Shown: in pieces, positions 39,388 through 62,521 of the stretch
Layout: each line of letters opens with the position of its first letter
Numbering within the stretch: position 1 is the first letter of the stretch
Assembly: GCA_004764695.1 (NCBI GenBank)
Contig: SMSO01000034.1
Coordinates: 2,170,001-2,234,000 of the forward strand
From: Schizochytrium sp. TIO01
Lineage: Eukaryota > Protista > Bigyra: Labyrinthulomycetes
Reading direction: 5' to 3'
Length of the DNA stretch: 64,000 bases
Program-made: the position numbers and the translations under genes
Notes under the pieces: generated by a model
Told to the model about the DNA's origin: nothing
The model's input: only the letters and a program-made list of their open reading frames with translations
The model's database searches: none

Positions 39388-39411
39388 CAGGATTTCAAAC
39401 TTAAGAGCGCT
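39388..39411 (+). promoter_or_regulatory. Shared upstream dyad motif, copy 1 (degenerate)
   Basis: caggatttcaaacttaagagcgct, about 290 bp upstream of ATG 39680. Confidence 0.6.
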
Positions 39412-39679
39412 CAATCATACTATCCCACCAGATCCATTCAAGCAAGCGCTAATAGGACTCTCTCGTACGGAATTGTGAGCAAGCAAAGTTGGCAGTATTC
39501 GCATCGCAGATGCTAGCAAATCTGAAACGCTGTTTATGGAAAAGTTCAAGCCACTTCAACAGGGGCGTTCATCGTTCTTTGCGAAAGTCAAGTCCCACTA
39601 ATATTAGATTTGCCAATATATCCCATCCAAAGCTTTCAAGCTTACGTTTGCAAGCTGTATATTGCATTTCCCAAGAACG

Positions 39680-40882
39680 ATGAGTAGTAATATCCCAAAG
39701 CCAGATGAGCATGAGCCAGAGTATGGGCTGGAGTTTGGGCTGAAGCTTGCGCCAGAGCTTGGACTGGGGCTTGAACCAGAGTTGGAGTCAAAGTTTTCGC
39801 TGGAGCTTGAGTCAAAGCGTAAGCATGAGTCAGACCCAGAACTTGAGCTTGAGCAGAAGACTGAGAATGGTACAACTCAGCTAAACAAAGAGCATGAGCA
39901 AGAACAGTTGCACAAGCAAGCGCAGCGGGCGTCTCTGGGGATAGTTCTCATTGACACAGTCACATCGACCTTCATGAGCGTTCTTCCAGAATGGATAACC
40001 TCGCAACAGCGCAAAAAGTTTGAGCAAGAACTGCAAGATCAAGAGATCGAGTTTAAATGTCGGCTCTTACAACAACAATACAAATATAAGCAAGAACTGC
40101 AGCAACTTGAAAAGCATTATGGTCAGCAGCTGAGTTCTAAGCAGGAGGAACAACAAAACCTAGAGAAGCAACACAACCAGCAATTGTACCAGCAAGGCAG
40201 AAAGTGGCAAGAATGGCAAATGCAACATCAAGACCATCAGGAAAAGACACAACAGGATCTGCAGGAGCAATACGAGAAGGAACTACATCGGCAAGAAGCA
40301 TTGTGGCAACAACGGCTAAGACAACAGCAACTGTTGCACAACCAGCAGCTGCGTCGTCAAGAAGAGCTATGGCGACAACAGCTACAACAAGAACAAGACC
40401 AGCTCGACGAGCTATAGAAGCAAAGTAAAGAGAGAGAGAGAGAGAGAGAGGCAGAGAGAGAACAAGTTACAGCATCAACATCGCATCAGCAAGACCTTCA
40501 ATAGCAAGAGAGATTAGGGCAAGGGCAGCTTATACAGCTGCAGGAGCTGTAGCAGCAGCTGCATGCGTGTATGTCTTCGTCTCTGCCTATGTTTACTCTT
40601 ACTTGTTCGTTTTCGTCTTCGCCTTTGTCTTCGTCTTTAGCATCGTCAGAATCTAAGCCTAAAAGCTATTTTTATCTTTGTCTACTTCTGCGCCTATGTC
40701 TCCGTCTGTGCCTTCGCTCACGTCTTCTGGTCTCGGTGATATTTTTGCTGGTAGCAGCATCAACAGTCGGAATTATTGTTGGACCATGCGTTGGAAAATA
40801 CTACATCAACCAGAACAGGAATAAACATGGGCATCTTCGTAATAGAAGTTTACTGCAACATGGCAGTATACCTATTCGTTAG
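39680..40882 (+). pseudogene. Q/E-rich coiled-coil family member 1 (decayed); retains a degenerate GPRGG module
   Basis: Acidic N-terminus, hydrophobic segment LGIVLIDTVTSTFMSVLPEW, then Q-rich coiled coil. TAG at 40415-40417 and further stops. Downstream GIIVGPCVGKYYINQNRNKHGHLR (40769-40840) aligns to TGPRGGEYYINSNGNKQYLR. Confidence 0.75.
40429..40450 (+). repeat. (AG)11 microsatellite within the decayed coiled-coil gene
   Basis: Direct reading of the sequence. Confidence 0.9.
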
Positions 40883-41749
40883 CAAGCATTGAGATATTCT
40901 AAAAGAATCAATTCTCAGACTTCGAGCAAACAAAAGATTCAGAAGTCAACTTGATGTAATACAGGTGTAGGGACAGTACTAGGTAGTCCTGCAGTCTCTC
41001 GGGACAGATGACTAAGTTGACAAACACATGGACCACTAGTCAGAGAATACTCTAGTCAATCCATTTATATTGGGGAAACTTTAGTTAAGTGGATATTTAA
41101 TACCTATAGAAGAACGAATATGGAAATAGATTGGTTTTTAGGTAGTACCTAGAGCTGTAAAAAAACAAAACAAAAAGAAAAAAACGATCGGATTGCAGAA
41201 TAAAAAAATGGAAAAAACGAATAAATTTCAGAACAATATTGCTATGATGCGCTAGGTGAGTGCTAATCACATTTATTATTTCATTTAAATAGAATAAAAA
41301 TCAAAATCGTAATAATGTGTATTCACAGTGCTCTCTCAAAGCTCCCGAAGAAAGCTTGTGCGAAGTGGTTCTTTTAGTCTGGCAGTGTGGAGTTTCCGAT
41401 AATTGTAGAACACTCGAATGATATCTAGAGGGCACGCACGTTCTTTTTCTTCCTTTTTCTTTCCACACTCAAAGTTGCCTTTTCAATTTGTAGAAAAAAA
41501 AATATTTTAAAAAATATAGGTTACGAAGAAGCAACATCCTTCAAGTTGGCATTGCGTACTCCGTCCAAGAACGTGATTTCAGGGTCTGCGCCACGTGCTG
41601 TGTTTTGTAAATTGATCTACCACTCCACTTTTCATTATTCATGGCACCCTGAGCTACGAGTAGCGATGGTCTGTAGATTATCTTCGCTACTGAATTTCAG
41701 ATCGATTGCGCTACCGTCGCGCCTAAGAGTCGCTGTAGCACTACATAGA

Positions 41750-41801
41750 CTGGATCCCAATCTTGAGAGCGCTTCCTTGGACTACGCACATCAGTTGGAC
41801 T
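41750..41801 (+). promoter_or_regulatory. Shared upstream dyad motif, copy 2, with second box TCAGTTGGAC
   Basis: ctggatcccaatcttgagagcgcttccttgga...tcagttggact, about 337 bp upstream of ATG 42087. Confidence 0.7.
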
Positions 41802-42086
41802 GCTTCAAGTTCTCAAAATCCAAGTCGGCAAGCGCGGAGTTTCAGCCGCAAGATCTTCACGACCAAGCCTCAAGATCGACAGCGCGAGCTTCGTTGATGT
41901 CCGCAGGCAGGCAGACCTGAATCAAAAGACATACAACCAAACCTCAATTCACTTCTTCTGCAAGGCGCAGTCCTTTATCCAAGAGGGCCAGTCGATCGCA
42001 GAGTTTGGTCTTACTTGCACCCCGTGCAAAATTCTCGCAAGAACTGCAGTAGAGCTCTGCAATCGTCATTTGTCTTGGCCTCATCG

Positions 42087-43601
42087 ATGGCAGATATTCC
42101 TCTTCGCTACCGGCGCCCTGCCCAGGCTCGCGAAGACGACCGGGGCCGTGTTCACGGCAATGCGCCAGCTCAAGAGTCTTGGTGGACATGGCTGGTTCGC
42201 CTTTTCCACCTCGTCGCGAGCTTCTTGGTTGAGTCCTGGCAAAGCGGGGTGAATTGGGTGTCTCGATGGCTAGAATCTCGACGGCAGGCGCAGCAGGAGT
42301 TAAGGGCGCAGCAGGAGCAGGAGCAGCAGGAGTTAAGGGCGCAGCAGGAGCAAGAGCAGCAGGAGCAAGCGCGAATGGAGCAAGAGCGGCAGGAAGAAAT
42401 CCAGGACCTGCAAAGACAAGTGGCGCGGCTGACACGGCAGCTTGAAGAGGAGAGGGAGCGGCACGCAAGAAATTTGTCAGAGCAAGAGATCCTTTCTGAG
42501 CGGCGGCTCCAAGATGGGCGGGACGAGTTAGAGGAGAACAGGCGGCAGCTTGCAAATGACAAGGATGCTTGGCACAGGGAGAAACAGAGGGACATGCAGA
42601 AATGGGCCGAGGAAAGAAACGAGTGGTTGAAAGAACTAGAGGAGTGGCGAAAAGAAAAGGAGAAGAAGCAAGAGGAGTGGGATGCAAAGCTACAGGAGTG
42701 GAACACAGAAAGAGAGAAGCTGGAGAAGCAAATTTGCAACGAGCGAGACGATTTTGAAGTGCAGCGTCAACATTATCAAATAAGAGATGCAGAATATCAA
42801 GGGCAGGTACAACAGCTTCAGAACCAATATCGGAACCTAGATCTGCGTTGGCAAGAGAAAGAAAACGAATGGAGAGCTCAGGAACAACAGCACCGGGCAG
42901 AACAGGAACAGTGGCAAAGGGAAAGGAATACATGGCAAGAGAAGGTAAACGGATTGCAAGAGCAGCTGCAAGAGCAGCAACGAACACACCGAGAAGAGAA
43001 GAATCAGTGGGAAAACTTAAAGACTGTTTTGGAAAACCAGCGGGCAGAGGAGAGGCGGCAAAAGGAAGAGTGGGAAAACAAGCATGCAGCTTTACTGAGG
43101 GTGCAGCAACAGCAGGACAGAAATTACAAGTCCAAGCAGGAGGAATGGAAGGCCAAAAAAGAAGAGCTGAAAAAGCAGTTGAAAGACCAGCAAGATCACC
43201 ATAACCAAGAAAAGCAGCAATGGCAAAGCGCCAAAGAAGCTTTACTGAAACTGCAGCAAGACCAGCAAGATCACCACAAGCGAGAACAGGAGCAATGGCA
43301 AAGCGCCAAAAAAGCTTTACTGAAACTGCAGCAAGACCAGCAAGATCACCACAAGCGAGAACAAGAGCAATGGCAAACCGACAAGCAAGCTTTAGAAAAG
43401 CAGCTGCACGACCTACAAGAATTGCACAATCATGAAAAGTCAGAATGGGAAGCTGAAAAAGAAGCCTTGAAACAGCATCACGTAAAGCAGCAAGATGAAC
43501 ACCAGCAACAACAGCAGCAATGGCAAACCGACAAACAAGCTTTAGATCTCCTTCTCTTACCGCTGCTGCCGCTTTTTGCGATGTTCGTGTTCCTTGTCTA
43601 A
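42087..43601 (+). CDS. Q/E/K/W-rich coiled-coil family member 2, 5' part (truncated by an inversion)
   Basis: First ATG at 42087 (MADIPL). Trp-rich amphipathic segment SWWTWLVRLFHLVASFLVESWQSGVNWVSRWL; 25-aa repeats. The last 18 residues (DLLLLPLLPLFAMFVFLV) are read from the inverted segment. Confidence 0.75.
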   Translation: MADIPLRYRRPAQAREDDRGRVHGNAPAQESWWTWLVRLFHLVASFLVESWQSGVNWVSRWLESRRQAQQELRAQQEQEQQELRAQQEQEQQEQARMEQERQEEIQDLQRQVARLTRQLEEERERHARNLSEQEILSERRLQDGRDELEENRRQLANDKDAWHREKQRDMQKWAEERNEWLKELEEWRKEKEKKQEEWDAKLQEWNTEREKLEKQICNERDDFEVQRQHYQIRDAEYQGQVQQLQNQYRNLDLRWQEKENEWRAQEQQHRAEQEQWQRERNTWQEKVNGLQEQLQEQQRTHREEKNQWENLKTVLENQRAEERRQKEEWENKHAALLRVQQQQDRNYKSKQEEWKAKKEELKKQLKDQQDHHNQEKQQWQSAKEALLKLQQDQQDHHKREQEQWQSAKKALLKLQQDQQDHHKREQEQWQTDKQALEKQLHDLQELHNHEKSEWEAEKEALKQHHVKQQDEHQQQQQQWQTDKQALDLLLLPLLPLFAMFVFLV

Positions 43602-43834
43602 GTCATCCTCCTTATCTTGCAACTCCTGCAACTCCTGCAGCTTCTGCTGGTGCTGTTGTTGCTGTTGTTGCTGCTGTTTATGCAATTCTTCTTCTCTAAT
43701 TTGCCATTTGGAATTTTCACGATTGTGCTGTTCTTGCTGTTCTTGCTGCTGCTGTTGCAAACCTGCTTTTTCGGTTTGCCATTCGGACTTTTCACGATTG
43801 TGCAATTCTTGTAGGTCGTGCAGCTGCTTTTCTA
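43546..43834 (-). repeat. Inverted, slightly diverged copy of the 3' coding part of member 2 (compare about 45149-45430)
   Basis: The reverse complement encodes LEKQLHDLQELHNREKSEW...LQELQDKEDDLDKEHEHRKKRQQR*EKE, matching the forward copy in 43839..45854. Breakpoints carry TAGA/TCTA microhomology. Confidence 0.9.
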
Positions 43835-45854
43835 GTGGTTGAAAGAACTAGAGGAGTGGCGAAAAGAAAAGGAGAAGAAGCAAGAGGAGTGGGATGCAAA
43901 GCTACAGGAGTGGAACACAGAAAGAGAGAAGCTGGAGAAGCAAATTTGCAACGAGCGAAACGAGTTTGAAGTGCAGCGTCAACATTATCAAATAAGAGAT
44001 GCAGAATATCAAGGGCAGGTACAACAGCTTCAGAACCAATATCGGAACCTAGATCTGCGTTGGCAAGAGAAAGAAAACGAATGGAGAGCTCAGGAACAAC
44101 AGCACCGGGCAGAACAGGAACAGTGGCAAAGGGAAAGGAATGCATGGCAAGAGAAGGTAAACGGATTGCAAGAGCAGCTGCAAGAGCAGCAACGAACACA
44201 CCGAGAAGAGAAGGATCAGTGGGAAAACTTAAAGACTGTTTTGGAAAACCAGCGGGCAGAGGAGAGGCGGCAAAAGGAAGAGTGGGAAAACAAGCATGCA
44301 GCTTTACTGAGGGTGCAGCAACAGCAGGACAGAAATTACAAGTCCAAGCAGGAGGAATGGAAGGCCAAAAAAGAAGAGCTGAAAAAGCAGTTGAAAGACC
44401 AGCAAGATCACCATAACCAAGAAAAGCAGCAATGGCAAAGCGCCAAAGAAGCTTTACTGAAACTGCAGCAAGACCAGCAAGATCACCACAAGCGAGAACA
44501 GGAGCAATGGCAAAGCGCCAAAGAAGCTTTAGAAAAGCAGCTGCACGACCTACAAGAACAGCACGACCGAGAAAAGCAGCAATGGCAAACCGAGAAATCA
44601 AATTTACAAAAGCAGCTGCAAGACCAGAAGCAAAAATTGCAAGAACAAGATAAAGCATTTTTTGAAAAAGAGGGACAGTGGCTAGTAGATAAAGGAAAGC
44701 TACAAAGAAACGTTGCAGCTCTACAGAATCAAGTGGCAGAATGGCAGGAGAAAGAAGCGGCCTGGCAAAAGAAGCAGCGAGACCAGCAACAACAGCACCA
44801 GCAACAGCAGCAGCAATGGCAAACCGACAAACAAGCTTTAGAAAAGCAGCTGCACGACCTACAAGAATTGCACAATCATGAAAAGTCCGAATGGGAAGCT
44901 GAAAAAGAAGCCTTGAAACAGCAACACGTAAAGCAGCAAGATGAACACCAGCAACAACAGCAGCAATGGCAAACCGACAAACAAGCTTTAGAAAAGCAGC
45001 TGCACGACCTACAAGAATTGCACAATCGTGAAAAGTCAGAATGGGAAGCTGAAAAAGAAGACTTGGAACTGCAACACATAACGCAGCAAGATGAACACCA
45101 GCAACAACACCAGCAACAACACCAGCAATGGCAAACCGACAAACAAGCTTTAGAAAATCAGCTGCACGACCTACAAGAATTGCACAATCGTGAAAAGTCC
45201 AAATGGGAAGCTGAAAAAGAAGCCTTGAAACAGCAACACGTAAAGCAGCAAGATGAACACCAGCAACAACAGCAGCAATGGCAAATTAGAGAAGACGAAT
45301 TGCATAAACAGCAGCAACAACAGCGAGAACAGCACCAGCAGAAGCTGCAGGAGTTGCAAGATAAGGAGGATGACTTAGACAAGGAACACGAACATCGCAA
45401 AAAGCGGCAGCAGCGGCAAGAGAAGGAGATGGGTTGGTTGAAGAAAGACGTCGACTGGCACAAAAGAGAAGTAGATCGGGAACGCCGAAATTATAAACAG
45501 GAGCTGCAAGACAAAGAGAGAGAACTACAAGACAAAGAAGCATTATGGAAAAAGAAAGAAGCAATGCGGCAACAGGAGGAGGAACGTCAGCAGTGGGAAA
45601 AAGAGAGAGCAGAATGGAAGAAGAAAGAAGAAGACTGGAAGAAGATAGAAGAAGAGTGGAAGAAGAAAGAAGAAGACTGGAACAAGAAAGAAGCAGACCT
45701 TAGTAAACAAGATGAATCACAATACCCTGAGAACGAGTCTTTAACACAGAGTTCGGATGAGGAGCAATATCCAAATAGAAGCCCTAGCAACAGCCCTGGT
45801 GCCACTGGCGCCACTGGCGCCAGAGCTAAAAATAAAAAAGGACGACGTGGATAA
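43834..45854 (+). pseudogene. Q/E/K/W-rich coiled-coil family member 2, duplicated 3' part lacking its own start (direct repeat of 42622-~43315, offset 1212 bp)
   Basis: Sequence from 43834 (agtggttgaaagaactagagg) repeats 42622 onward almost exactly. The open frame runs to TAA at 45854 with no ATG or N-terminal helix of its own. Confidence 0.75.
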
Positions 45855-47138
45855 TACAATCAGAGTGGAAGAAATCCGGAATCTGGGAGGGCTTTCTCTG
45901 ATTCTGCGCCACCAGGAAGCCTTGCCGGAGCTGTAGACTCCGATATTGACGAGAACACAAACTAGGCATATTCTGCTACACTTGCAAACGTCGAAGGAGC
46001 TTCCGAAACTGCACCTCTATACTTCGCGCGAAATCTGTAGGGGTCAAAGTTGATCCAATGCACCCTGGTACACCAGGTGATCAGACAGAAACACCTTGGA
46101 AGTGAGAAATCAAAAGTACAGATACATAATCCCGCGCCATGTCACGTGGCTTGACAGATTTTATCGAACTTATTTGATTCAATATTTAGACTTGAGCTAT
46201 ACAGCCCGACATAGAACGAGAGATTCGAGTCATTTAAGTTATCAAACATATTTTTATAGTTAAAATTGGTCGTAAACCCTTTGCCTATGATTTTTTTCGT
46301 ATAAATCAAGATATTGGCCTCCACTAATTGGCTTCTGGTTAATGAAAACCATTATTGCCTTTAGAGCATAACAATGCTGCCGTATCTAGGCCGTGCTAAA
46401 GCGTGTAAACTGATGTCATACGGCACTTGTCCCATCGGTGCGTTATTTTTGGTCCTTTTGAAGGTAAGTTGCATGAGTTGGATAGCTGTATACTATGATG
46501 ATAGGGCGTGCAAGCCGTGTGATCGTAACGATGGCTATTCATATCTTAGACTTGAGCGAATCGGTGGCTTTGTACAAAGCAAACTAGCTGCAGGCTGGGC
46601 GTGACTTCGTTCACAAAGTCATGTGAAGGTAATGATGGGTTGTATACAGAGATTAGGAAAATGTTTGTCACGCTAAAATCGCGCTTCTCTGTAATAAAAT
46701 CATTCATCTCGTTCGTTTAGTGCGCTCTCTCTTAGGTACCTTTTCATCTATTCTGCAACATTGTTAGTAGCTTGGTTAAAGCGTTCCTTTGCTAATATCT
46801 TTTTTGGTTCATGTCAGTGAATCTTTCGAACATAAGCGTTGATTCGTCCTCAGCTGTTGCGTACCTTCGGACATAAGTCTTGCACTCACTTTTAAGCTAC
46901 TTTTAAAAAACAAAACAAAATTTAGCCTTGAGCATTGGACTAGCGTGATGTAAACAGCCTTGATTTGGACTAATCAGAGCAAAACTTAATTCTTGCAGAC
47001 GTAACACAGATTAAAAAGGAACACTTGAATGATCACCCCACTGGCAACATTATGAGTGTCATGGTTTGACTGAAGTTTTCACTTATGACAAACTCTGCTT
47101 TTATTATCACGCAGGTATTATATAGTGGATTGAACGTT

Positions 47139-47166
47139 CTGGACTTCCAACTCAGGAGCGTTTTTT
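47139..47166 (+). promoter_or_regulatory. Possible degenerate orphan copy of the shared upstream motif
   Basis: ctggacttccaactcaggagcgtttttt resembles copy 6 (tggacttcagtcctgggagcgctttc). No family gene directly follows. Confidence 0.35.
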
Positions 47167-47788: not shown

Positions 47789-47843
47789 CTGGATCTCAAA
47801 CTTGAGAGCGCATTCTCAGGCTGCGATCCATGTCAATTGGACT
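47789..47843 (+). promoter_or_regulatory. Shared upstream dyad motif, copy 4 (perfect TCTCAA-AC-TTGAGA dyad), with second box TCAATTGGAC
   Basis: ctggatctcaaacttgagagcgcattctcagg...tcaattggact, about 323 bp upstream of ATG 48112. Confidence 0.7.
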
Positions 47844-48111: not shown

Positions 48112-49830
48112 ATGTGTTCGAACTCTCGCGAGACGCTCCGCAACCAAGGCTCGGCAGGTGAACCGGAAGGCGAGCCGATAGACCAGCAAGAACAAGGAAA
48201 AGAACAAGGAAAAGAACAAGAACGAGAACAAGAACAAGGAAAAGAACAAGGAAAAGAACAAGAACGAGAACGAGAACAAGAACGAGAACGGGGACACCAC
48301 TCTGGACAGGAACTCGGGCAACAGCCAGAAAGCGAGCTAGCGCCAGAGCAAAGCTCTTGGTGGAGATCGCTCGTTTGCCTTTACCATGCCCTTGTCGCAG
48401 CGCTGGTGATTGCGATCCATGGTGCAGTGCAACGACTTCCCGACTGGCCTCCTGCGAAACAGCGAAAGCTGCAGGCGCAACTGGAAGAGCAAGAAGAACG
48501 ATGGAAAGAGCGGCTGGCGCAACATGAGAAGGAAGCCGAGGCGCAGCGCGGAGACGCTCTGCAGAAGGCGCAGGGAGGCTGGCAAGAGAAAGAGGAAGAA
48601 CTGAAAGCGCAGCTAGGTGATCTTCAGCGGCAACATGCTGAGTTGCAAGGAGCAGAAGCATCACTGAGAAAGGAGCTCCATGACCGGGAAGAATCTTGGC
48701 GAAAGACTGACACAAAGTCTCAACAAGAGATAGGAAAACACCAGCAGCAATTGCAGGATTTTCAAAGCAAAGTAGACTCGTTGAATAGCAAGTGTCAGCA
48801 GCAGCAAGGAGATCAGCAGAAGCTGCAAGATCATGCAAAAGAATTGGCAACGAATATAGAGGAAATGGAAGCCCGTGAAGCAGAACTGAACCGTCTCGTA
48901 GAAGATTGGGTCGAGAAAGGAAAAGAGTGGGACGAGAAAGTATCAGAATGGAACGGGTATCAAACGGATCTGATTGATCAACATCGGCAAGAGCAGGAGC
49001 AGTGGCGCAGCGAACTTGAACAATTGCAAAAGCAGCACGAACAAGAGAGGCAAGAGCAGCAAGAGCAGCACGAACAAGCGCAGGAGCAGTGGGAGGCCAA
49101 GGTAGTGACCCTAAAGGAGCAGTACGAACAAGAGAGGCACGAGCAACAAGAGCAGCACGAACAAGCACAGGAGCAGTGGCAAAGTAAAGTAGAGACACTA
49201 AAGGAGCAGCACAACCAAGAGAGGCAAGAGCAGCAAGATCAGCACGTGCAAGATAAACAGCAGTGGCAAGCCAAAGTAGATACATTAAAGGAGCAGCAAA
49301 AAGAGCAGAAGGAGCAGCACCTCCAAGATAAACAGGAGTGGCAAGAGAAAGTAGTTCAGTTGCGCGAGCAGCAACGAGAGCAGCTCGAGCAGCAGTGCAA
49401 AGAAAAGGAGGAGTGGCAAGAGAAGGTAGCGGAGCTGCGAGAGCAGCAACGGCAACAGCTGGAGGAGCATCGACAAGAGTCGCTGCAGTGGCGAGAAAAA
49501 GAAGCAGAGTTGCAGCAGCAGCTGCTGCAGCAGCAAGAACGACAGCAGCAGAAGAAGAAAGATATCGAGTGGCAAAAGAAAGAAACAGCATGGCAAAAGA
49601 CAGAAGTTGCACGACAGAGGCAAGAAGCAGAACAGAAACGTCGGCATGAACAACAGCAACTGCAAGCAACCATAGAAGAATTGCGAGAACAGCAACAACA
49701 GCAACAACAGCAACACCGGCGAGAGCAGCTGCAGTGGCAAGAGAGAGAGACCAACTGGGAACAGCAGCAATACCAGCACCAGCAGCAGCTGCAGCAGTGG
49801 CAAGATAGAGAAAAAGAGTTCAAAGACCAG

Positions 49831-49863
<33 letters not shown>

Positions 49864-50250
49864 ATGAAAGAGTTAGAGTGGCAGAAGAAAAAAACCGATT
49901 TTCATAAGAAGGAAGTGGAACGACACAAAATAGAAGCAGAACGACAACAGCAGAAACAACAGCAAGAGTGGCAAGGAAAACTAGCAAGACTGCGAAAGGA
50001 ACAGCACGAACAGCAACAAAAATACACGCAGGAACAGAACAAGCTGCAAGAGATGGTAGGCGAATTGCAAAAGCAACGTCAAGAGCAGCAGGAGAGTAGG
50101 AAACCTAAAAAGACAGAACGGGGAAAGAAAGCAAACCAACAACAACTAACCCAATCAGCGTCTGCCCGTGCACCAAAGGGTAAGCTCCAGACTATAAGGT
50201 CGTTTTCCTCAAGTGATGAATCCACCTCTGGCCTAGAAGCAAAGCATTAG
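48112..50250 (+). CDS. Q/E/K/W-rich coiled-coil family member 3 (intact; no GPRGG module)
   Basis: First ATG at 48112. EQGK/ER repeats; SSWWRSLVCLYHALVAALVIAIHGAVQRLPDW; long coiled coil with 29- and 25-aa repeats. Confidence 0.8.
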
Positions 50251-50453: not shown

Positions 50454-50485
50454 CTGGATCTCAAACTTGGGAGCGCTCTCTTGGA
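50454..50485 (+). promoter_or_regulatory. Shared dyad motif, copy 5 (orphan; no family gene downstream)
   Basis: ctggatctcaaacttgggagcgctctcttgga, near-consensus. Confidence 0.65.
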
Positions 50486-50910
50486 TGATCCAGTTCGTTG
50501 AGCTGTCTAGCCCATTAGGTATGTATAGACCGGAAAGATAGCCAACGGATTGGCGCAACTTCACTTTTACCATTCTAACTAGTTAAGGGCTGCTCGAATC
50601 AATACTTTTACATGGACAAATACCCAAGCCAAAACCTACTTGGCTCTTTGGTACCTCATTCTTATCAATCTTACTGCTTGGTTTTGTAAACTCAACTTGG
50701 AATTAGATCTCTTCTTAAAAGAAAGAAAAGAGCATCCGTAAAAAAATTTAGCTCAAGGAGCTAAAATCTGCATTTAACTTTTAAAGCTAGGTAGAACTTT
50801 AACATCTAACGCTTAAGTGCACTTTAGAAGCAAAAAGACCTTACTGTTATAAAACGGAAACTAAGAATACAAGTCTAAACTTGATTTATACTATGTATTA
50901 TGAGTGAAAT

Positions 50911-53371: not shown

Positions 53372-55444
53372 TCACCGTTTGATATATTGCTTATTTCCAT
53401 TGCTGTTGATGAAATACTCTCCACCACGAGGACCGGTATGGATCTCTCGGCTGTTTCCAGTCCCAGCGCTAGCTTTGTTACTGGGACTGGGGTACGATGG
53501 CGACTGTGTTGGTGTCACAGGAGCAGGCTGAGGTGAAGACTTACGTAGATACTGCTTGTTTCCACTGCTATTGTAATAATACTCTCCACCAAGAGGACCG
53601 GTATGGATCTCTCGGCTGTTTCCAGTCCCAGCGCTAGCTTTGTTAATGGGACTGGGGTACGATGGCGACTGTGTTGGTGTCACAGGAGCAGGCTGAGGAG
53701 AAGACTTACGTAGATACTGCTTGTTTCCACTGCTATTGTAATAATACTCTCCACCAAGAGGACCGGTATGGATCTCTCGGCTGTTTCCAGTCCCAGCGCT
53801 AGCTTTGTTAATGGGACTGGAGTACGAGGGCGACTGTGTTGGTGTCACAGGAGCAGGCTGAGGTGAAGACTTACGTAGATACTGCTTGTTTCCGTTGCTG
53901 TTGATGTAATACTCTCCACCAAGAGGACCGGTATGGATCTCTCGGCTGTTTCCAGTCCCAGCGCTAGCTTTGTTAATGGGACTGGAGTACGAGGGCGACT
54001 GTGTTGGTGTCACAGGAGCAGGCTGAGGTGAAGACTTACGTAGATACTGCTTGTTTCCATTGCTGTTGATGTAATACTCTCCACCAAGAGGACCGGTATG
54101 GATCTCTCGGCTGTTTCCAGTCCCAGCGCTAGCTTTGTTAATGGGACTGGAGTACGAGGGCGACTGTGTTGGTGTCACAGGAGCAGGCTGAGGTGAAGAC
54201 TTACGTAGATACTGCTTGTTTCCATTGCTGTTGATGTAATACTCTCCACCAAGAGGACCGGTATGGATCTCTCGGCTCTTTGCACCGGTGCCAGTACTGT
54301 AATCACAAGCAAAAGTTTCTATGGAATAATGGAAAGAAAGTGGTTCTACATCTGATGGCGATGAAGATAATTGGCGCCTCATTTGTGAACGTGCTGGCGA
54401 GCGCAATACCGGTGACTTAAATTCAGGTTCATTTGACTCATGTGGTTCATCTTTAGGCACTAGTTCCTGTGAAAGCTTGTGTACTTCTTGTTCCCTCTTT
54501 GTTCTTTCCTCTTGCAGATCTTTTTTCTGCTGGGTTTGTTGCTGCTGCCACTTTGCTTTTTCCTCTTGCAGATCTTTTTTCTGCTGGCTGAGTTGCTGCT
54601 GCCACTTTGTTTTTTCCTCTTGCAGATCTTTTTTCTGCTGGGTTTGTTGCTGCTGCCACTTTGCTTTTTCCTCTTGCAGATCTTTTTTCTGCTGGCTGAG
54701 TTGCTGCTGCCACTTTGTTTTTTCCTCTTGCAGATCTTTTTTCTGCTGGGTTTGTTGCTTCTGCCACTTTGCTTTTTCCTCTTGCAGATCTTTTTTCTGC
54801 TGGCTGAGTTGCTGCTGCCACTTTGTTTTTTCCGCTTGTAGTTCTTTTTTCTGCTGGCTGAGTTGCTGCTGCCACTTTGTCTTTTCCTCTTGCAACAACT
54901 GCTTTTCCTGCTGCAGATCGTCGTTCTGCTGGCTTTGTTGCTTCTGCAACTTTATCTTTTCGAATTGCAGCAGCTGCCTCTGCTGTTCTAGCGGAGGGAT
55001 TAGTCTACGTTCCATCCGTCGTTCTTTTTCTTCCCTTTGCAACTCTTGCTTTTCGTGATCGAGTCGAATCTGCTGCCGTTCAATTTCCATTAGGCATTCA
55101 TTCGTTTTGTCTTCCAACTCCTTCTGTTTGCTTTGTCGCTGTTGCATGTCTGTCTCTTTTCCTTCAAGCGCCAGTCTTTCAAGCTGGAGTTCTTGCAGTT
55201 GCTGCTGATACCATTCATGTTGTTTTGCAAACAGCCACTGAGAAAGCTGTCGTAATATCCAATGATACGCGCCTGACCAAATTAAAACAAAAGCGTGAAG
55301 AGTGTCAACAAGAAATGCCCACCACGCACTGCGCTCTTCTAATGCTGCGCTATTATCTGAAGTATGTTCTTGCTTTTGGTTCTGTTGATGTTGATATCCT
55401 AATTCTCTCCTGTGCCCCTTCTGCTTAAGTATGGTGTAACGCAT
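53372..55444 (-). CDS. Q/E/K/W-rich coiled-coil family member 4 with six C-terminal GP(R/L)GGEYYINSNGNKQY modules (PBCV basic-adaptor-like)
   Basis: SAWWAFLVDTLHAFVLIWSGAYHWILRQLSQWL; 18-aa coiled-coil repeats; 55-aa tandem repeats at the C-terminus. Confidence 0.85.
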   Translation of the reverse strand: MRYTILKQKGHRRELGYQHQQNQKQEHTSDNSAALEERSAWWAFLVDTLHAFVLIWSGAYHWILRQLSQWLFAKQHEWYQQQLQELQLERLALEGKETDMQQRQSKQKELEDKTNECLMEIERQQIRLDHEKQELQREEKERRMERRLIPPLEQQRQLLQFEKIKLQKQQSQQNDDLQQEKQLLQEEKTKWQQQLSQQKKELQAEKTKWQQQLSQQKKDLQEEKAKWQKQQTQQKKDLQEEKTKWQQQLSQQKKDLQEEKAKWQQQQTQQKKDLQEEKTKWQQQLSQQKKDLQEEKAKWQQQQTQQKKDLQEERTKREQEVHKLSQELVPKDEPHESNEPEFKSPVLRSPARSQMRRQLSSSPSDVEPLSFHYSIETFACDYSTGTGAKSREIHTGPLGGEYYINSNGNKQYLRKSSPQPAPVTPTQSPSYSSPINKASAGTGNSREIHTGPLGGEYYINSNGNKQYLRKSSPQPAPVTPTQSPSYSSPINKASAGTGNSREIHTGPLGGEYYINSNGNKQYLRKSSPQPAPVTPTQSPSYSSPINKASAGTGNSREIHTGPLGGEYYYNSSGNKQYLRKSSPQPAPVTPTQSPSYPSPINKASAGTGNSREIHTGPLGGEYYYNSSGNKQYLRKSSPQPAPVTPTQSPSYPSPSNKASAGTGNSREIHTGPRGGEYFINSNGNKQYIKR
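53375..54276 (-). repeat. 165-bp (55-aa) coding tandem repeat, about 5.5 near-identical units
   Basis: gaccggtatggatctctcggct recurs at 53431, 53596, 53761, 53926, 54091 and 54256 (period 165). Confidence 0.95.
54500..54895 (-). repeat. 54-bp (18-aa) coding tandem repeat QEEK(T/A)KWQQQ(LS/QT)QQKKDL, about 7 units in alternating variants
   Basis: Direct reading of the translation and DNA (ttcctcttgcagatcttttttctgctgg recurring). Confidence 0.9.
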
Positions 55445-55746
55445 CGTTCCTTTAAAACTCGACGTGAGGTTTGTCTGTTTTCAATGGGAGCGTAAGCCTG
55501 GATGCGCCTTGCCGAAGCTGAGGCACTCGAATGAGCTTTGTTTTGATTTCTCGTGTTTACAACTAAGGCGGCGCGCCCTTTACAAGTACGTGGCTTGGAA
55601 CGCAAGCTCCTGATCTGATTCAGATCTGCTGTCGTCAAAGACGTCTATCTGCTTAACCTTGGGCAGACTAAATAGTCAATTCCGAGAGAAAGTCAATTCT
55701 TCTTTGTAGCATATTTTGTGAGGAGCTCGATTGGTATATTAGATAA

Positions 55747-55777
55747 TCCAAGAAAGCGCTCCCAGGACTGAAGTCCA
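55747..55777 (-). promoter_or_regulatory. Shared upstream motif, copy 6
   Basis: Reverse complement tggacttcagtcctgggagcgctttcttgga, about 333 bp upstream of ATG 55444. Confidence 0.65.
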
Positions 55778-55839
55778 TAATCGTTAGTTCAATATTAGTT
55801 GAACCTAGCATCATAGTGGATCTAGGAGCACTCCTTCAA

Positions 55840-55841
<2 letters not shown>

Positions 55842-55871
<30 letters not shown>
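55842..55871. repeat. Poly(T)30 / poly(A)30 homopolymer
   Basis: Direct reading. Confidence 0.9.
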
Positions 55872-55878
<7 letters not shown>

Positions 55879-56506
55879 ATAAAAGTTTGCTTGTTTCCTT
55901 CTGTTAAAAGGCTGTGTTGGTTTCTTTCCTTTCGGAACAAGAATTCTACCACAAAGTCAAAGCAAACATATCTCAATTTGGTGAAAAGAAAAAAATGCAA
56001 TGAAAAAATTAGAAAAGAAGGGGGGGAGTTAATTTTAATTAAAATTATAAAATAAACAATCAAGTTTAAAATCAATATCACAAATCCAATATCATTCGTT
56101 AGAGAGTTTGAGATGGTTTCAGTCCGTCATATTGAATGAACCCGGCAAGTACATTGTTAATATAAGACTAAGCTTGGTGCAGATGGAGAGTACTTCTGGC
56201 GCACTTCAAATAGCTTGTAATACCTTTTCATCACTCAATTTTATCTGAGCAAACAATTTCAAATATATTGAAAAATCTGGTTTACAGAATCTGGCAGGGT
56301 GTCAGAAAAGTCAAATTATATATCATTTATCTCACTAAAGAGGAGGAACAGCCGTGTCATTTTGCATTTGATAGTTGTATTACTGTTGCATATGCCTATT
56401 GTGTATCAAAGAACAAATTGGCATTCAAATATCTTAGTTTGAAGCTACCTAAGTTAATGCTTGTAAGAGTAAAGGTGTATTCCCATGGTATTACGTTTTG
56501 CTCCAT

Positions 56507-58630
56507 TTACTCTTTGGGCTTGGGCTGGTACTGCTTCTTTCCACTGCTGTTGATATAATATGTCCCGCCACGTGGTCCAGTGAAGATTTCCCGGCTGTTG
56601 CCAGACGTTGTATTACTATCACTGGCGAACAATTGTGATCGAGGCGGGGTCACAGGAGCAGGCTCAGGTGAAGACTTGCGTAAATACTGCTTGTTTCCAC
56701 TGCTGTTGATGTAATACTCTCCACCACGAGGACCAGTATGGATCTCTCGGCTGTTTCCAGTCCCAGCACTAGCTTTGTTACTGGGACTGGCGAACAATTG
56801 CGATCGAGGCGGAGTTACAAGTGCAGGCTCAGGTGAAGACTTGCGTAAATACTGCTTGTATTCACTGCTGTTGATGAAATAGTCTCCACTACGAGGACCG
56901 GTATGGGTCTCTCGATTGCGAGCAGTGGCGCCAGTACTGCTTCCAGAACTAGAGCTGTCAGTACTACCATCCAATGAATATGACTCACCAAATAATGATG
57001 ACGTCCTTTTGCTCTGTTGTGGCATGGGCTGTGGCACGTACGATCCAAAGTACACCTCAGAGGCAGGTGAAAACAAATTATTGTACTTCATACTACCGCT
57101 GAAGTTGAACTGATCTGATCCATAAGGTGATCCAAAATTAAAACCTGGCTTCTCCTGACTATAAACATTATCACCAAAGCTAATGCCGAGGCCTGACAGG
57201 CTGGATGCAGTATTATGGGATCCTTGCGATTTATTCAGCATTTTCAGTGATTCATTATATCTTCTTTGCAACTGATCCTCTTTTTCATGCCACTCCTTCT
57301 CTTTCTCTTGCCACTCAACCTCTTGTTCATGCCAGACAATTTTTTCCTTCTCCCACTTCATTCTTTCCTCTAGGAGGCATTCCCTTTCCTTGTCTAGCTC
57401 CTTATACAGTTTGCTTTTTTCTTGATGCAATTTGTCATCGAGAAGCTGCCATTCTCCCTGTAAGAGTTCCTCTAATTGGCTTTGCTGCTGCAGCCACTTT
57501 GTCTTTTCCTCTTGAAACAACTGTTTCTCCTGCTGAAAATCGTCTTTCTGCTGGCTTAGTTGCTGCTGCCACTTTGCTTTTTCCTCTTGCAACAACTTTT
57601 TTTCCTGCTGCAAATCGTCTTTCTGCTGGCTAAGTTTCTGCTGCCACTTTGTCTTTTCCTCTTGCAACAGCTGTTTTTTCTGCTGCAAATCGTCTTTCTG
57701 CTGGCTTAGTTGCTGCTGCCACTTTGCTTTTTCCTGTTCCAGATTTTTTTTCTGTTCGGTTTGTTGCTGCTGCCATTGTACCTTTTCCTCTTGCAACAAC
57801 TGTTTTTCCTGCTGCAGGTCTTCTATCTGTCGGATTTGATGCTGCCACTTTGTCTTTTCCTCTTGCAACAACTGTTTTTCCTGCTGCAAATTGTCTTTCT
57901 GCTGGCTTAGTTGCTGCTGCCACTCTGTCTTTTCTTTTTCCCACTGTTGCTTTACCTGCGCCTGCCTTTCCTGCTGTTGTCTAAGTTGCTCCATTGAAAG
58001 TTTCGTATTGGCATGCAAGTCCTCCCGTTGCTGACTGAGCTTCTCCAGGTCTTGGTTTCTTTGCCTTTCCCAGGTTGTCGCGTATTCTTCGAACTGGAGC
58101 TGCATTACCACTTGCTGGCTGCTCTGCTGCTGAAGGTCTTCCTCTTGTTGAGCTAAACGTCGCTTCCATAGTTTCTCTTGCTCCCTAAGTTGCCGTTCGA
58201 AACGCTCCTGGTCCAGTTCCTTCTGTTGCCTTAGTCGCCTTTCCAATTGCTCTACTTGCAACTGCAACTCCTGCTGGAGCAGATCATCTTCTTGCTGCTG
58301 CTCTTTTTGTTGCTGTCTTTGCTCGTGCTGGCCCGGTTGGTGTTGCTGTTTGGGAGATAGCCAATGGTGTAGCCGTCGTGATCTCTCATGCAAGGCGCCC
58401 AGCAAGATTGAAATTAAAGCGACCAAAATCCACCCGACGCCTTGCTTTAACGCTAGCTCGTTTGATGGATTTTGAGGTTCTTCAGGTTCTTCAGATTGTT
58501 CGTGGGACGGCTCATCGTACGTTCCCTTATCGCCCGGGTCGTCCCCGTTTTTTGGTTCGTGCTCATGCTCGACATCCGGTTCTTCCTCATCACCCTGCTC
58601 GTATTCCGGGAGCAGCGCCTCGGCCATCAT
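56507..58630 (-). CDS. Q/E/K/W-rich coiled-coil family member 5 with three C-terminal GPRGG modules
   Basis: First ATG at 58630. Acidic N-terminus; GVGWILVALISILLGALHERSRRLHHWL; 25-aa repeats; TGPRSGDYFINS, TGPRGGEYYINSSGNKQY, TGPRGGTYYINSSGKKQY. Confidence 0.85.
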   Translation of the reverse strand: MMAEALLPEYEQGDEEEPDVEHEHEPKNGDDPGDKGTYDEPSHEQSEEPEEPQNPSNELALKQGVGWILVALISILLGALHERSRRLHHWLSPKQQHQPGQHEQRQQQKEQQQEDDLLQQELQLQVEQLERRLRQQKELDQERFERQLREQEKLWKRRLAQQEEDLQQQSSQQVVMQLQFEEYATTWERQRNQDLEKLSQQREDLHANTKLSMEQLRQQQERQAQVKQQWEKEKTEWQQQLSQQKDNLQQEKQLLQEEKTKWQHQIRQIEDLQQEKQLLQEEKVQWQQQQTEQKKNLEQEKAKWQQQLSQQKDDLQQKKQLLQEEKTKWQQKLSQQKDDLQQEKKLLQEEKAKWQQQLSQQKDDFQQEKQLFQEEKTKWLQQQSQLEELLQGEWQLLDDKLHQEKSKLYKELDKERECLLEERMKWEKEKIVWHEQEVEWQEKEKEWHEKEDQLQRRYNESLKMLNKSQGSHNTASSLSGLGISFGDNVYSQEKPGFNFGSPYGSDQFNFSGSMKYNNLFSPASEVYFGSYVPQPMPQQSKRTSSLFGESYSLDGSTDSSSSGSSTGATARNRETHTGPRSGDYFINSSEYKQYLRKSSPEPALVTPPRSQLFASPSNKASAGTGNSREIHTGPRGGEYYINSSGNKQYLRKSSPEPAPVTPPRSQLFASDSNTTSGNSREIFTGPRGGTYYINSSGKKQYQPKPKE

Positions 58631-58913
58631 GCAATTCAACGAAGACTTCAACTGTAGTCCTTGTGGACGTGCGCTGCGAGGCCGTGCCGAGGCAAAGCAG
58701 AACTTTGTTCGAGGCGAGCTTTGTCAACAACGAGGGAAGGAGGGCCACGCATATGCATTTGCCATCGATCCAGGTTTGCAGGTATTGTCTTGACCGATTT
58801 AAGACCTTCAAGCGCGGCCTTTTTACTACTGCCGTGCGCGTTGCGCTTGCCCAGTTGGACTAAGTGAACTCGGCGTGGATTAAGTGAACCTGGCGTAGTC
58901 CAAGAGTTGAAAT

Positions 58914-58971
58914 GGTCCAACTGATAGGAATAGTGTTTGTCCAAGAAAGCGCTCCCAACCTTGAGATCCAG
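58914..58971 (-). promoter_or_regulatory. Shared upstream dyad motif, copy 7, with second box TCAGTTGGAC; lies in the divergent spacer shared with the TIR gene
   Basis: Reverse complement ctggatctcaaggttgggagcgctttcttgga...tcagttggacc, about 341 bp upstream of ATG 58630. Confidence 0.7.
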
Positions 58972-59683
58972 GTATCAACTTCCTAATTTTAATTTCATAA
59001 TTTTAATTCCATAACAAGGTAGAACATTTCTTTTTTCTCTTCTCATTGAGAAGAAGCGCCTTTTTTTATTCAATAAAAAGAGAATCAACTTTAAAAAACA
59101 AAACAAAACAATTTTTATTTTTATTTTTTAAAAATAATAAAATGTTACACATAATTTGAATATATCTATATAGGCCGTTTCCCTCGTTTTGTTTCTTTTC
59201 TTTTTTCATATGATAATAATGATATCGAATAATAAAACATAAAAAGAATAACAAGATCGCAGTTGCAAACATGAGCACGCTTAAATGAGATTAGATTACT
59301 GAATTAAAACATGCACGCACGACTTGGCTTGAAGAGGAGTTAGCAAAGAGTTTGCGAAGGATCCATAATTCCGAGTTGACTGTTTGACATTGTTCATTGA
59401 AAGCGCAATGAACCTTGTGACAAATATAGAGGCTTAATTTGTTGAATCTTGGACAGCACGATACTATGTTTATATTGATCAAGTTGTACTGGATTTCAAC
59501 CATGAGAGCGTTCTGCTGGATTGCCTATCTTCGTGTAGGCTGCTATGCAAGTCCAATTTCGCAAGTCCGGGGACTCCATATGAACTAATGACAAGCAAGT
59601 CGCAAGGCTGAAAGTTGCACATGGCTGACAGCAATCCCATATCATAGAGACAAGCGTTGCGCAAGTCAGAAACCCTCACAGCG

Positions 59684-62521
59684 ATGTGGACCTTTTCACG
59701 AGAAAGACACGTGGGTATGCCTCCAAGAACAGTGCGATGCATGCAAAACGCAAGAATGCCTCCGACGGGCCTTTTCCCGGGATGTGTAGAAGAGATGTTC
59801 TTCGGTTTCGACGAATCGCCATTCGGTTTCAACACCATGGAGGCTGCTAGAATTGAAGCTTTGCAGAAACGACAAGAAGCAAAGGAGCTTCGAAAGATGC
59901 TCGTCATTGCGTGTAAGGAAGGTGATCTGAAGCTGGCCAAGCGCTGTATCTGTAACGGAGCAAGTGAAAACTCCCAAGATCGGGAGGGTAAAACTGCCCT
60001 GATGTGGGCATCTCAGAGTGGAAACTTGGAGCTCGTTAAGTTTCTTGTGAACTCAGGAGCACAGGTAAATGCAAGAACGAAAACTGGCGGAGGCACAGCG
60101 CTAATGTGGGCATGCGAATTTGGCCATATTTCCATTGCTAAGCTCTTGATTAAATGCGGCGCCGACGTGAACCTAGGAATGCACATCAACGCAACTCCTC
60201 TTATAATGGCCAGCCAGTCTGGGTGCATTGATGCTATTACTTGCTTAATCAAACACGGAGCAAACATCAATGTGCAAGAGATGGGTGGTGGAAGGAGTGC
60301 GCTCATGCTCGCATGCTCCCATGGCTATTTTGAGGTTGTAAATATACTCTTAAAACACAGAGCAGAGGTAAACCTCCAAGACAAAAGGGGATTTACTGCA
60401 CTATGGCATGCATGCATGTCAAATGTTTTGGATATAGTGACGCTGCTACTCCAGAACAACGCGAACTTATGCTTGCGTGACCAATATGGAAGGCAATTGC
60501 ATGAAGTGCAGTCGAACAAGAACCCCAATTCTCCTATTACAAAGCTTCTCCTATTTATCAGAGGTAGTATTGTGTCCGACTTTCTTTTGAAGCAACTCAA
60601 GCTCTCACAGCGTGTACCAGTTGCCTTCTATCAGCAGCATGTGCTTACTGTTAAAGATTGTGAGCGCCTTGATCACGAGGATTTACAAACTCTTGGAGTT
60701 AAATCCATGAAGGACCGTCTCGCCTTCTTGCGAAGATTCAATCCTACGAGTGAGGCTGCTCAAACGAAGAGTTTCTCTACTACGACGAGTGGGTCGGAGG
60801 AAAACGTATCGACTTACACGCCAGGCACAACTCTAGTCGCAGTCAAGACCTTCTCTGGCGAGCTAAACGTCACAAAGGGTACTCGTCTACGAGCATTGAA
60901 AAGGAGCGATGACAATTGGATCATCGCTGAGATCGAAGCCAGCAAGCAAAGAGGCATGATTCCTGTAAGCTATGTTGTCACCGAAGAAGAGTTTGCAAAT
61001 GATAGTGAAAACCAAGACAAAGTTGGACACAGTGATCAAAGTGATGCACGTAATTCCACAGGAGAGCGTAGCGATGATGACTGTGAAAGTGACGAGGAAG
61101 GAAAGGGCAATGATTTCCTGGATTTTCTTCACTTTCTTGACAGCGAAGAAGACAGCGAAGAAGACAGCGAAGATGAGGATGAAGAAGAATTCTATTATGA
61201 AGATGAGCAAGAAGAAGAGGAGGAGGAGGAGGAGGAGGAGGAAGAAGAAGAGGAAGAAGAAGAAGGAGAAGACAGCGAATACGATGAAACAGAAAACAAT
61301 GAAGTAGATAAAGTAGAAAATAAGGATATAGAGCATGGTCTAGAGAATGAAGATCTTGATTCAGACAACTCCAGCCAAGAGGAAGAAGAGGAAGAGGGAA
61401 AGAATGAATGCGACGATGACGATGGAAAACCCAAGAACAAATCAAAAGAGGCAGGAAAGCTGTTTACCGACACTGAAAAGAGCAGCACTTCCCAGGCTTC
61501 AAAGTTGAAAGTCTCCACTAGCTTTCGCATTCCGTCGGCCCCAAAAGAAAGGCCGTCTCAAACAAGTTCCGAATCATCCGTGGACCGCTGTTCAAGTATG
61601 TCAGGTTTAGCAACAACAGGTTTCGGATTTGGCGAGACTTCATCGCTACCGGCAGCAGACAAAATTTCGCCCCCTTCAGAAAATCCTTTTATTGAGTTTT
61701 CCACGTCTTCGAACAAACAATCACCAAATCCTGGTCCAGAATGTCCTCGCGTTTGGTCGTCAGAGGGTCCGCTCCGTAATATTCCAGATTTCGACTTTGG
61801 CGTTAAATTTTCTTGCCCATCATCGCGTCTTGGTGGCGATTCTGCGCAGGCAAAGGCACGCCAACCTTCTACAAGTGGAGGATTTCGAGTTGGCAAGGCT
61901 AGGCGACGATTGTACTTGGGAGTCCGTACAAGACAGAGTAACGACAAAGCGCCTTCACCATTCTCACCGGAGCATTCTCCGTTTACATCTGAAACACCGC
62001 CTTGTAGGCCCAACACAAAGGCTAACCAAGGTGCCGAAAGCAGTGACAAGAATTTTGATGTGTTCTTATCCCATGCTTGGGGAGAGGATGCAAAAACTCA
62101 CAAGCTTGTAAAACGTGTAAAGGACACGCTGGAAGAGAAACACTTAATTAGTTGTTGGTTCGACGAGGACCAGATTACCCATGGTGATGTAAAGCAAGCC
62201 ATGGCAGATGGAATTTCGAAAAGCAAGGCCAGTATTATTTTTGTGACACGGCAATACATGGAAAAAGTGAATATGAAACCAGGCTCTCAGGACAACTGCT
62301 GTCTTGAATTCAACTATATCACAAAGCGACATTCGGTTGCTATGATGATACCTGTGGTTCTTGAGTCTGAAATGAAAAACCAGAATCTATGGGACGGAGT
62401 CTTTGGCATGACTTGGGGCAGCCCACTCTATGTGGATATGACGAAAGGCGGTGAAGAAATTGAAGTCAGAAGACTTGTTACTATGATTCAAAACGTTCTT
62501 CAATCAGCTATTACTTGCTAG
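59684..62521 (+). CDS. Ankyrin-repeat + SAM + SH3 + acidic linker + TIR (TIR_2-type) protein
   Basis: About 6 ankyrin repeats (GKTALMWASQSGNLELVKFLV etc.). SAM (LDHEDLQTLGVKSMKDRLAF). SH3 (ELNVTKG..DDNWIIAE..RGMIPVSYV). Poly-E tract. TIR: FDVFLSHAWG, CWFDEDQI, DGISKSKASIIFVTRQY, DNCCLEFNY, MIPVVLE. Start codon uncertain among several ATGs. Confidence 0.9.
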   Translation: MWTFSRERHVGMPPRTVRCMQNARMPPTGLFPGCVEEMFFGFDESPFGFNTMEAARIEALQKRQEAKELRKMLVIACKEGDLKLAKRCICNGASENSQDREGKTALMWASQSGNLELVKFLVNSGAQVNARTKTGGGTALMWACEFGHISIAKLLIKCGADVNLGMHINATPLIMASQSGCIDAITCLIKHGANINVQEMGGGRSALMLACSHGYFEVVNILLKHRAEVNLQDKRGFTALWHACMSNVLDIVTLLLQNNANLCLRDQYGRQLHEVQSNKNPNSPITKLLLFIRGSIVSDFLLKQLKLSQRVPVAFYQQHVLTVKDCERLDHEDLQTLGVKSMKDRLAFLRRFNPTSEAAQTKSFSTTTSGSEENVSTYTPGTTLVAVKTFSGELNVTKGTRLRALKRSDDNWIIAEIEASKQRGMIPVSYVVTEEEFANDSENQDKVGHSDQSDARNSTGERSDDDCESDEEGKGNDFLDFLHFLDSEEDSEEDSEDEDEEEFYYEDEQEEEEEEEEEEEEEEEEEEGEDSEYDETENNEVDKVENKDIEHGLENEDLDSDNSSQEEEEEEGKNECDDDDGKPKNKSKEAGKLFTDTEKSSTSQASKLKVSTSFRIPSAPKERPSQTSSESSVDRCSSMSGLATTGFGFGETSSLPAADKISPPSENPFIEFSTSSNKQSPNPGPECPRVWSSEGPLRNIPDFDFGVKFSCPSSRLGGDSAQAKARQPSTSGGFRVGKARRRLYLGVRTRQSNDKAPSPFSPEHSPFTSETPPCRPNTKANQGAESSDKNFDVFLSHAWGEDAKTHKLVKRVKDTLEEKHLISCWFDEDQITHGDVKQAMADGISKSKASIIFVTRQYMEKVNMKPGSQDNCCLEFNYITKRHSVAMMIPVVLESEMKNQNLWDGVFGMTWGSPLYVDMTKGGEEIEVRRLVTMIQNVLQSAITC

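Follow-up and report, generated by a model that had tools for sequence, protein, structure and literature searches.

Tandem coiled-coil rod genes and a TIR gene share a 33-nt upstream element in Schizochytrium sp. TIO01: a candidate inducible defence locus

What is the role of a cluster of coiled-coil rod genes, two of them tipped with basic modules of the Pfam family PF08789, that lies head-to-head with a TIR-domain gene in a protist genome? The question is raised by a stretch of 64,000 nucleotides (nt) from Schizochytrium sp. TIO01 (GenBank assembly GCA_004764695.1, contig SMSO01000034.1, positions 2,170,001 to 2,234,000, forward strand), here called the window, which is of eukaryotic type, with long single open reading frames (ORFs) and AT-rich spacers. 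Of ten window proteins compared with a protein collection, four are present there, and in two of the clusters some members bear the transcriptome label MMETSP0961, of Aurantiochytrium limacinum. A sequence-only reading had proposed an inducible regulon of membrane-anchored rods presenting virus-type modules. The cluster, the turnover of its genes and the upstream element that they share are real. The reading favoured here, at a probability of roughly 0.4, is that the fast-turnover tandem family of five rod loci (rods 1 to 5, Table 1) and the TIR gene form an inducible defence or conflict locus with membrane-tethered catchers of nucleic acid. The arrangement is new and its parts are known; as a system it is a candidate only.

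The strongest link between the rods and the TIR gene is a 33-nt island with a central dyad, around which the copies are mostly unrelated in sequence; capture of the promoter by duplication would look alike. A pattern scan yields seven matches against 0.07 expected, a circular figure, the pattern having been derived from those same copies. When a profile was built from four rod copies and run on the rest of the window, it recovered the copies at 50454, 55778 and 59489, all above the best scores (7.0-18.3) of 20 out of 20 locally shuffled windows. Over bases 1-39000 the best site of this held-out profile scores 11.6, and none exceeds the shuffled null. The dyad motif reported earlier upstream of all five rods is thus present, 292-341 nt before their starts. 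Among the orphan motif copies also reported, the one at 50454 (plus strand) holds, and the one at 47139 (score 14.8) lies inside the shuffled null and was dropped as chance-level. The spacer said to be shared with the TIR gene is likewise there and, beyond the earlier claim, the TIR gene carries the family element in its own right, at 59489. Joint activation of all six genes is therefore likely, as judged from their upstream sequence; a shared regulatory element, as looked for in a multi-gene defence system, is found for the rods and the TIR gene. No Rfam match occurs within 38000-64000. A second short motif, at 39233, 41412, 47500 and 55525 (+), appears to be common to the upstream regions of four rods, where it is 150-340 nt away from the 33-nt element; it has a fifth match at 12917.

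The ORFs begin where they had been placed (39680, 42087, 48112, 55444 and 58630 on the minus strand for the last two, and 59684 for the TIR gene), and the rods do constitute one gene family with a common layout. Each locus displays a leader of charged residues, a Trp/hydrophobic block some 40 residues long with Trp on its flanks, and a long rod of coiled-coil type rich in Q, E, K and W. The N-terminal block is homologous in seven of the ten locus pairs (z 4.8-11.3; score reached by 0 of 500 shuffles); similarity in the remaining three pairs is not significant in the shuffle test. It is predicted to continue as a single helix, with a predicted local distance difference test (pLDDT) above 90 from residue 41. 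Hydropathy of the helix is moderate (best Kyte-Doolittle KD19 1.3-2.1 in four genes), with His, Asp and Arg inside, and the most hydrophobic stretch of rod 2 (42087) is instead the C-terminal tail encoded by an inverted piece. Of the "membrane-anchored hydrophobic helix" described earlier, therefore, the homologous helix stands and the anchor is a prediction. In three rod genes the flank upstream of the helix is acidic and the downstream flank basic, which under the positive-inside rule, used here to orient such flanks, suggests that the N-terminal helix is an anchor or lies at a surface and that the rod is cytosolic. Trp residues along the rods are spaced by 7, 11, 18, 25 or 29 residues and hydrophobic periodicity is 3.56-3.64; if helical, the rods would be 21-92 nm long. 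A search with full-length rod 5 through 7984 candidates, 388-1238 amino acids (aa) long, found no relative at E<=1e-3, and an Atlas search gave it no usable match, a bacterial carrier of the module providing only a lead below 0.9.

Table 1. Features of the rod and TIR gene cluster (positions in the window)
Feature	Position	Strand	Description
Element, 292 nt 5' of rod 1	39388..39420	+	pattern scan, profile
Rod 1	39680..40417	+	245-aa ORF; N-terminal helix and short rod, premature stop; probable pseudogene
Decayed PF08789-like module	40769..40831	+	beyond the stop of rod 1; read by eye
Element, 337 nt 5' of rod 2	41750..41782	+	pattern scan, profile
Rod 2, first copy	42087..43601	+	504 aa; helix and rod, truncated by inverted piece supplying hydrophobic tail
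Inverted, diverged rod-2 piece	43546..43834	-	83% to 45151-45430; indels, one stop
Rod 2, second copy	43836..45854	+	672 open codons; 5' part absent, no module
Element, 323 nt 5' of rod 3	47789..47821	+	pattern scan, profile
Rod 3	48112..50250	+	712 aa; repeats of 25 and 29 residues; no module
Orphan element, no rod gene behind	50454..50486	+	held-out score 44.1
Rod 4	53372..55444	-	690 aa; 18-residue repeats; six 55-aa units, one PF08789 module each
Element, 334 nt 5' of rod 4	55746..55778	-	held-out score 26.7
Rod 5	56507..58630	-	707 aa; 25-residue repeats; three modules
Element, 341 nt 5' of rod 5	58939..58971	-	pattern scan, profile
Element, 348 nt 5' of TIR-gene ATG 59837	59489..59521	+	held-out score 24.4
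TIR gene	59684..62521	+	945 aa; ankyrin, weak SAM, weak SH3, acidic linker, TIR_2; likely start 59837

The 55-aa repeat at the rod tips matches PF08789 above the curated Pfam cut-off of 20.4 bits, in rod 4 with E 7.8e-24 (84 bits, 6 stretches) and in rod 5 with E 1e-10 (42 bits, 2 stretches). A motif scan finds six modules in rod 4 (53384-54284) and three in rod 5 (56519-56914); rods 2 (42087) and 3 (48112) have none, and the earlier count of six, three, one decayed and none in two is borne out. The GPRGG motif by which the module had been described needs amending, as five of the six rod-4 modules read GPLGG. The tips are basic (isoelectric point, pI, 9.8-9.9), and the module is predicted to fold as a three-strand meander. 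A two-module model gave no fold match at E<=0.001 in the PDB or a viral library and no Z>=2 in a wide search. Weak fold rows include WW domains, choline-binding domains and PBCV adaptor proteins; a WW relationship was considered and set aside, no row reaching E<=0.001. S/T-P sites abound in the linkers that join the modules, with 23 in rod 4 (53372-54284, minus strand) and 8 in rod 5 (56507-56914, minus strand), and a rod-5 linker contains one class II PxxPxR SH3-type motif, a putative ligand for the weak SH3 of the TIR protein.

Additional information about the module can be garnered from its relatives, of which a full search returned 298 at E<=1e-3. Among 152 examined (150 listed and two more), the motif is present in 120, at the C-terminus in 92 of these and with a hydrophobic N-terminus in 60; none of the 120 is as rich in Q and E as the rods. 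Two choanoflagellates, a foraminiferan and Vitrella are among the named eukaryotes that carry the module. Partner domains in 64 scanned relatives (63 of the 150 listed, picked by rank and length, plus one) were HNH (4), SNase (3), kinase (3) and bacterial SH3 (3). In prokaryote genomes 585 stretches were confirmed, and among the best 80 of these Bacteroidota is given by title in 69, the N-terminus is hydrophobic in 76 and the module C-terminal in 79; several bacterial carriers have a helical stalk between the two. The viral set comprises 96 matches, the best 80 of which look phage-like in the 31 loci with neighbours scanned (140 of 193 ORFs). As raw counts, 6 of 36 phage groups have SNase fused to the carrier or no more than 2 kb away, and 6 of 36 have a repressor or integrase nearby; of the 48 genome groups, 4 have SNase or HNH fused or at most 2.5 kb distant. 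A recurrent bacterial and prophage pair, a secreted coiled-coil protein with a C-terminal PF08789 module directly followed by an SNase-family nuclease (L013, L029, L030, L055, L107, L115), is possibly an undescribed module; DUF5763 was detected in the relative L089. A Flavobacterium chromosomal family (L103, L105, L108, L110 and others) displays a signal peptide, an Ala/Lys/Glu-rich stalk and a C-terminal module. Among eukaryotic or eukaryote-like carriers (P0002, P0001, P0144, P0004, P0156), P0002 has by eye a P-loop GTPase-like domain and a coiled coil and others HNH-like N-terminal domains, none of them named by Pfam.

The modules had been called virus-type, a label that the comparison does not uphold. 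Over 24 residues, the best identity to the window modules is 19-20 for bacterial and prophage modules, the bacterial sets having been retrieved with window-led queries, and up to 18 for protist ones; ten chlorovirus-style modules, so labelled from their sequence style, reach 13-15 at best, with a median of 10-11. In a tree of 64 modules the window's seven form a clade (98/91) within a mixed bacterial-protist group, and the chlorovirus-style modules are split from that group across a 99/100 branch; with 29 columns the tree cannot name a donor. Over those columns the modules are not closest to giant-virus modules, as would be looked for in a chlorovirus- or giant-virus-derived gene. On present comparisons, the module is of bacterial-protist type, one form of a known portable domain, and not a viral signature. 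Exact window-type module peptides or DNA were absent from the viral and metagenome contigs searched, and a chlorovirus-style query found no locus. A literature search by domain names, accession and GPRGG found no functional study of PF08789; PBCV-1 kinases bearing the domain are listed among DNA-associated virion proteins in PMC3281028.

The TIR gene had been read as ANK-SAM-SH3-TIR. Its ankyrin repeats and TIR_2 domain (E 1.1e-13) exceed the Pfam cut-offs, and the SAM and SH3 assignments fall below theirs. Its ATG at 59837 has the most start-like context. The TIR domain gives weak matches to Thoeris ThsB profiles; a Glu within the CCLEF stretch, which lies beyond the end of the alignments made, fits the catalytic motif and is a putative catalytic residue. 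A search with the protein returned 885 matches, the best 120 of which cover the ankyrin part only, at <=40% identity. No close relative of the TIR was present in the metagenome or viral contigs searched, two metagenome matches being distant (32-37% identity) and free of the module motif nearby. According to 10.64898/2026.04.20.719644, protist TIRs, including one from an oomycete, make cyclic ADP-ribose (cADPR), and thraustochytrids fall within one of the TIR clades. PMC12606086 (supplement file 4, row 185) lists an ORF of the integrated mirusvirus AurliV-2 whose best pHMMER match is a TIR-domain-containing protein.

Birth and death of genes, as asserted earlier, is evident from the early stop of rod 1, the 96% identical duplicates within rod 2 (42622-43413 and 43834-44625), the diverged inversion and the orphan element at 50454. 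Two of the five loci, rods 1 and 2, are broken in this assembly, and frames of about 700 codons remain open in the other three. Read fold-back was ruled out as the origin of the inverted piece at 43546-43834, since this is diverged and carries a stop. Four sequencing runs (X1, X8, X13, X15), whose types are guessed and not recorded and whose depths were not used for ranking genes, were mapped on 41600-59050, spanning rods 2-5; no joint at the inversion is among the joints listed for them. A sequencing run differs from the window in rods 2 and 3 by 27 amino-acid-changing to 4 silent changes, about the neutral expectation, a tally of the 31 rod-2 and rod-3 rows among 40 listed of 217 differences. 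Between rods 4 and 5 the ratio of nonsynonymous to synonymous differences (pN/pS) is 0.33 in modules and 0.38 in linkers, figures that are uncorrected and come from pairs that are not independent. A 29-codon repeat of rod 3 is missing from one X1 contig, and one module unit of rod 5 from a second; strain variation or collapse during assembly could account for either.

The four rod loci within 41600-59050 are all covered by contigs of X1 and X8, two runs presumed to be RNA. Three spacer bins are empty in X1, X8 and X13, and X15 covers two of them. About 53-166 nt separate each element from the contig end downstream of it, a distance that fits a promoter element, although contigs cannot show transcript starts. 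Run X13 gives almost no cover of rods 4 and 5, yet accounts for 0.13 of the words of 53000-62600; its reading as TIR transcripts without rods 4 and 5 (the TIR region being 0.335 of 53000-62600) was not used as evidence, since absence of cover is no proof.

Under the favoured reading of an inducible defence or conflict locus, a single transcription factor would bind the dyad element, and the N-terminal helix would be lodged in a membrane or lie on one, leaving the rod in the cytosol as a spacer whose amino acids are little constrained. Tips with 3-6 basic three-strand modules would bind DNA or another polyanion through avidity, and the TIR protein would serve as an NAD-cleaving signalling arm of the same response. 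The link between rods and TIR protein would be regulatory, by way of the element. For this reading speak the element at 292-348 nt in all six genes together with the held-out test, the lack of any full-length relative of the rods or TIR protein among the candidates scored, and the two broken loci, orphan element, diverged duplicates and near-neutral rod differences; so do the nucleases and kinases accompanying the module in some relatives, the PF08789 kinases among DNA-associated virion proteins, the basic tips, the module pN/pS of 0.33 and the synthesis of cADPR by protist TIRs. A more specific and unlikely version is a one-factor regulon in which tethered multivalent tips trap incoming DNA of viruses or bacteria, or act as competitors of viral proteins that use the same tag, and the TIR enzyme signals or kills. 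If this were true, a module that viruses place on DNA-associated proteins would have been turned into a host trap.

Several observations weigh against defence by nucleic-acid capture. Defence-system profiles match none of the rods. Intact modules are carried by two of the five rods and missing from three, so the module is not family-defining, and at a position that is Arg or Lys in 223 of 241 related modules, five modules of rod 4 carry Leu. No nuclease is near in 30 of 36 phage and 44 of 48 genome groups and the carriers are mostly secreted; because most bacterial carriers are of this kind, the ligand could instead be a glycan or a protein. No published experiment on the isolated PF08789 domain was found in the literature searched, and two mirusvirus annotation tables of PMC12606086 gave no match by domain name or motif in the visible parts of their long cells. 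The element, moreover, can also spread by promoter duplication.

Promoter duplication is central to the rather unlikely alternative of a relaxed gene nursery, in which a low-complexity gene and its promoter were copied repeatedly, one lineage gained a bacterial-type module and the TIR gene captured the promoter, with no joint function. The neutral-like rod differences, the Arg-to-Leu change in most rod-4 modules, the broken copies with the orphan element, and a TIR-side element that is the weakest of the six gene-linked copies would all be expected of it. It accords less well with pN/pS of 0.33-0.38 in modules and linkers, with three frames of about 700 codons still open, and with the element itself, which points to selection because it is a sharp island at a fixed distance amid diverged flanks. 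The same turnover bears on a second, equally unlikely, explanation, a stage-specific structural family (zoospore, ectoplasmic net, or organelle or lipid-droplet tethers) with the module as an optional accessory, e.g. a chromatin or RNA tether, and the element as a developmental switch shared with the TIR gene. Long regular heptad and hendecad repeats with the Trp spacings above, a predicted continuous and conserved N-terminal helix, three rods without intact modules, and guessed-RNA contigs over four rod loci are consistent with such a role; near-neutral rod differences, two broken loci and the lack of relatives elsewhere fit an essential structure poorly. In the zoospore proteome (PMC12221091) the main text, so far as available, has no match to 'coiled', and four supplements gave no match.

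Secretion of the bacterial relatives raises the further idea of rods that point out of the cell or into a vacuole and serve feeding or adhesion by binding extracellular DNA or glycans, as those relatives may. The hydrophobic N-terminus (76/80), C-terminal module (79/80) and occasional helical stalk of the bacterial proteins would agree with it. The rods, however, have no cleavable signal peptide evident by eye, their charge pattern in three cases favours a cytosolic rod, and their linkers are rich in S/T-P sites, so that this explanation is very improbable.

Among known systems, the closest likeness for the tips is PBCV_basic_adap (PF08789) of the PBCV-1 kinases A278L and A282L, which is likewise basic, repeated and C-terminal, the window modules scoring above its Pfam cut-off with a predicted three-strand meander; in contrast to these, the window modules tip eukaryotic coiled-coil rods and are nearer in sequence to the versions found in bacteria and protists. 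Secreted proteins of Bacteroidota and prophages (L017, L013, L103) have the same order of anchor, stalk and tip and up to 20 of 24 identical module residues, but are about 70-400 aa long, mostly with one module and a signal peptide, and their stalks are unrelated to the rods; no description of their function was found in the literature searched. Golgins and KASH-type tethers are long coiled coils that join a membrane anchor to a binding site at the opposite end, as is proposed for the rods. In the rods, however, the predicted anchor is at the N-terminus, the family is unstable and confined to one lineage, and the searches made found no similarity in sequence. SARM1 consists of ARM, tandem SAM and TIR, an architecture that the window gene does not have: ankyrin replaces ARM, and there is one weak SAM and a weak SH3, about 350 residues ahead of the TIR. 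With enzymatic TIRs generally (SARM1, Thoeris ThsB and the protist TIRs of 10.64898/2026.04.20.719644) it shares TIR_2 above cut-off and the weak ThsB matches.

Other genes of the window include an Oxidored_FMN (Old-yellow-enzyme) gene between rods 3 and 4 (50911-51785, minus strand), split into two ORFs, and, just upstream of the rods, a second tandem family at 33149-38207 of Cys-containing proteins that look secreted and end in a hydrophobic stretch (35624, 318 aa; fragments 33149, 37215 and 37899), two members of which are 36% identical and one of which, when scanned, had no Pfam match. Two tandem paralogous genes at 11583-14913 are methyltransferase-like by eye.

Thraustochytrids persistently carry mirusviruses, according to PMC12606086, and their immunity is little described in the literature searched. 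An element of 33 nt common to a TIR gene and to polymorphic rods would make an inducible regulon directly accessible in a protist that can be cultured. PF08789 is a portable domain found across bacteria, phages, giant viruses and protists, and the six-module array of rod 4 would be a natural substrate for the first test of what it binds.

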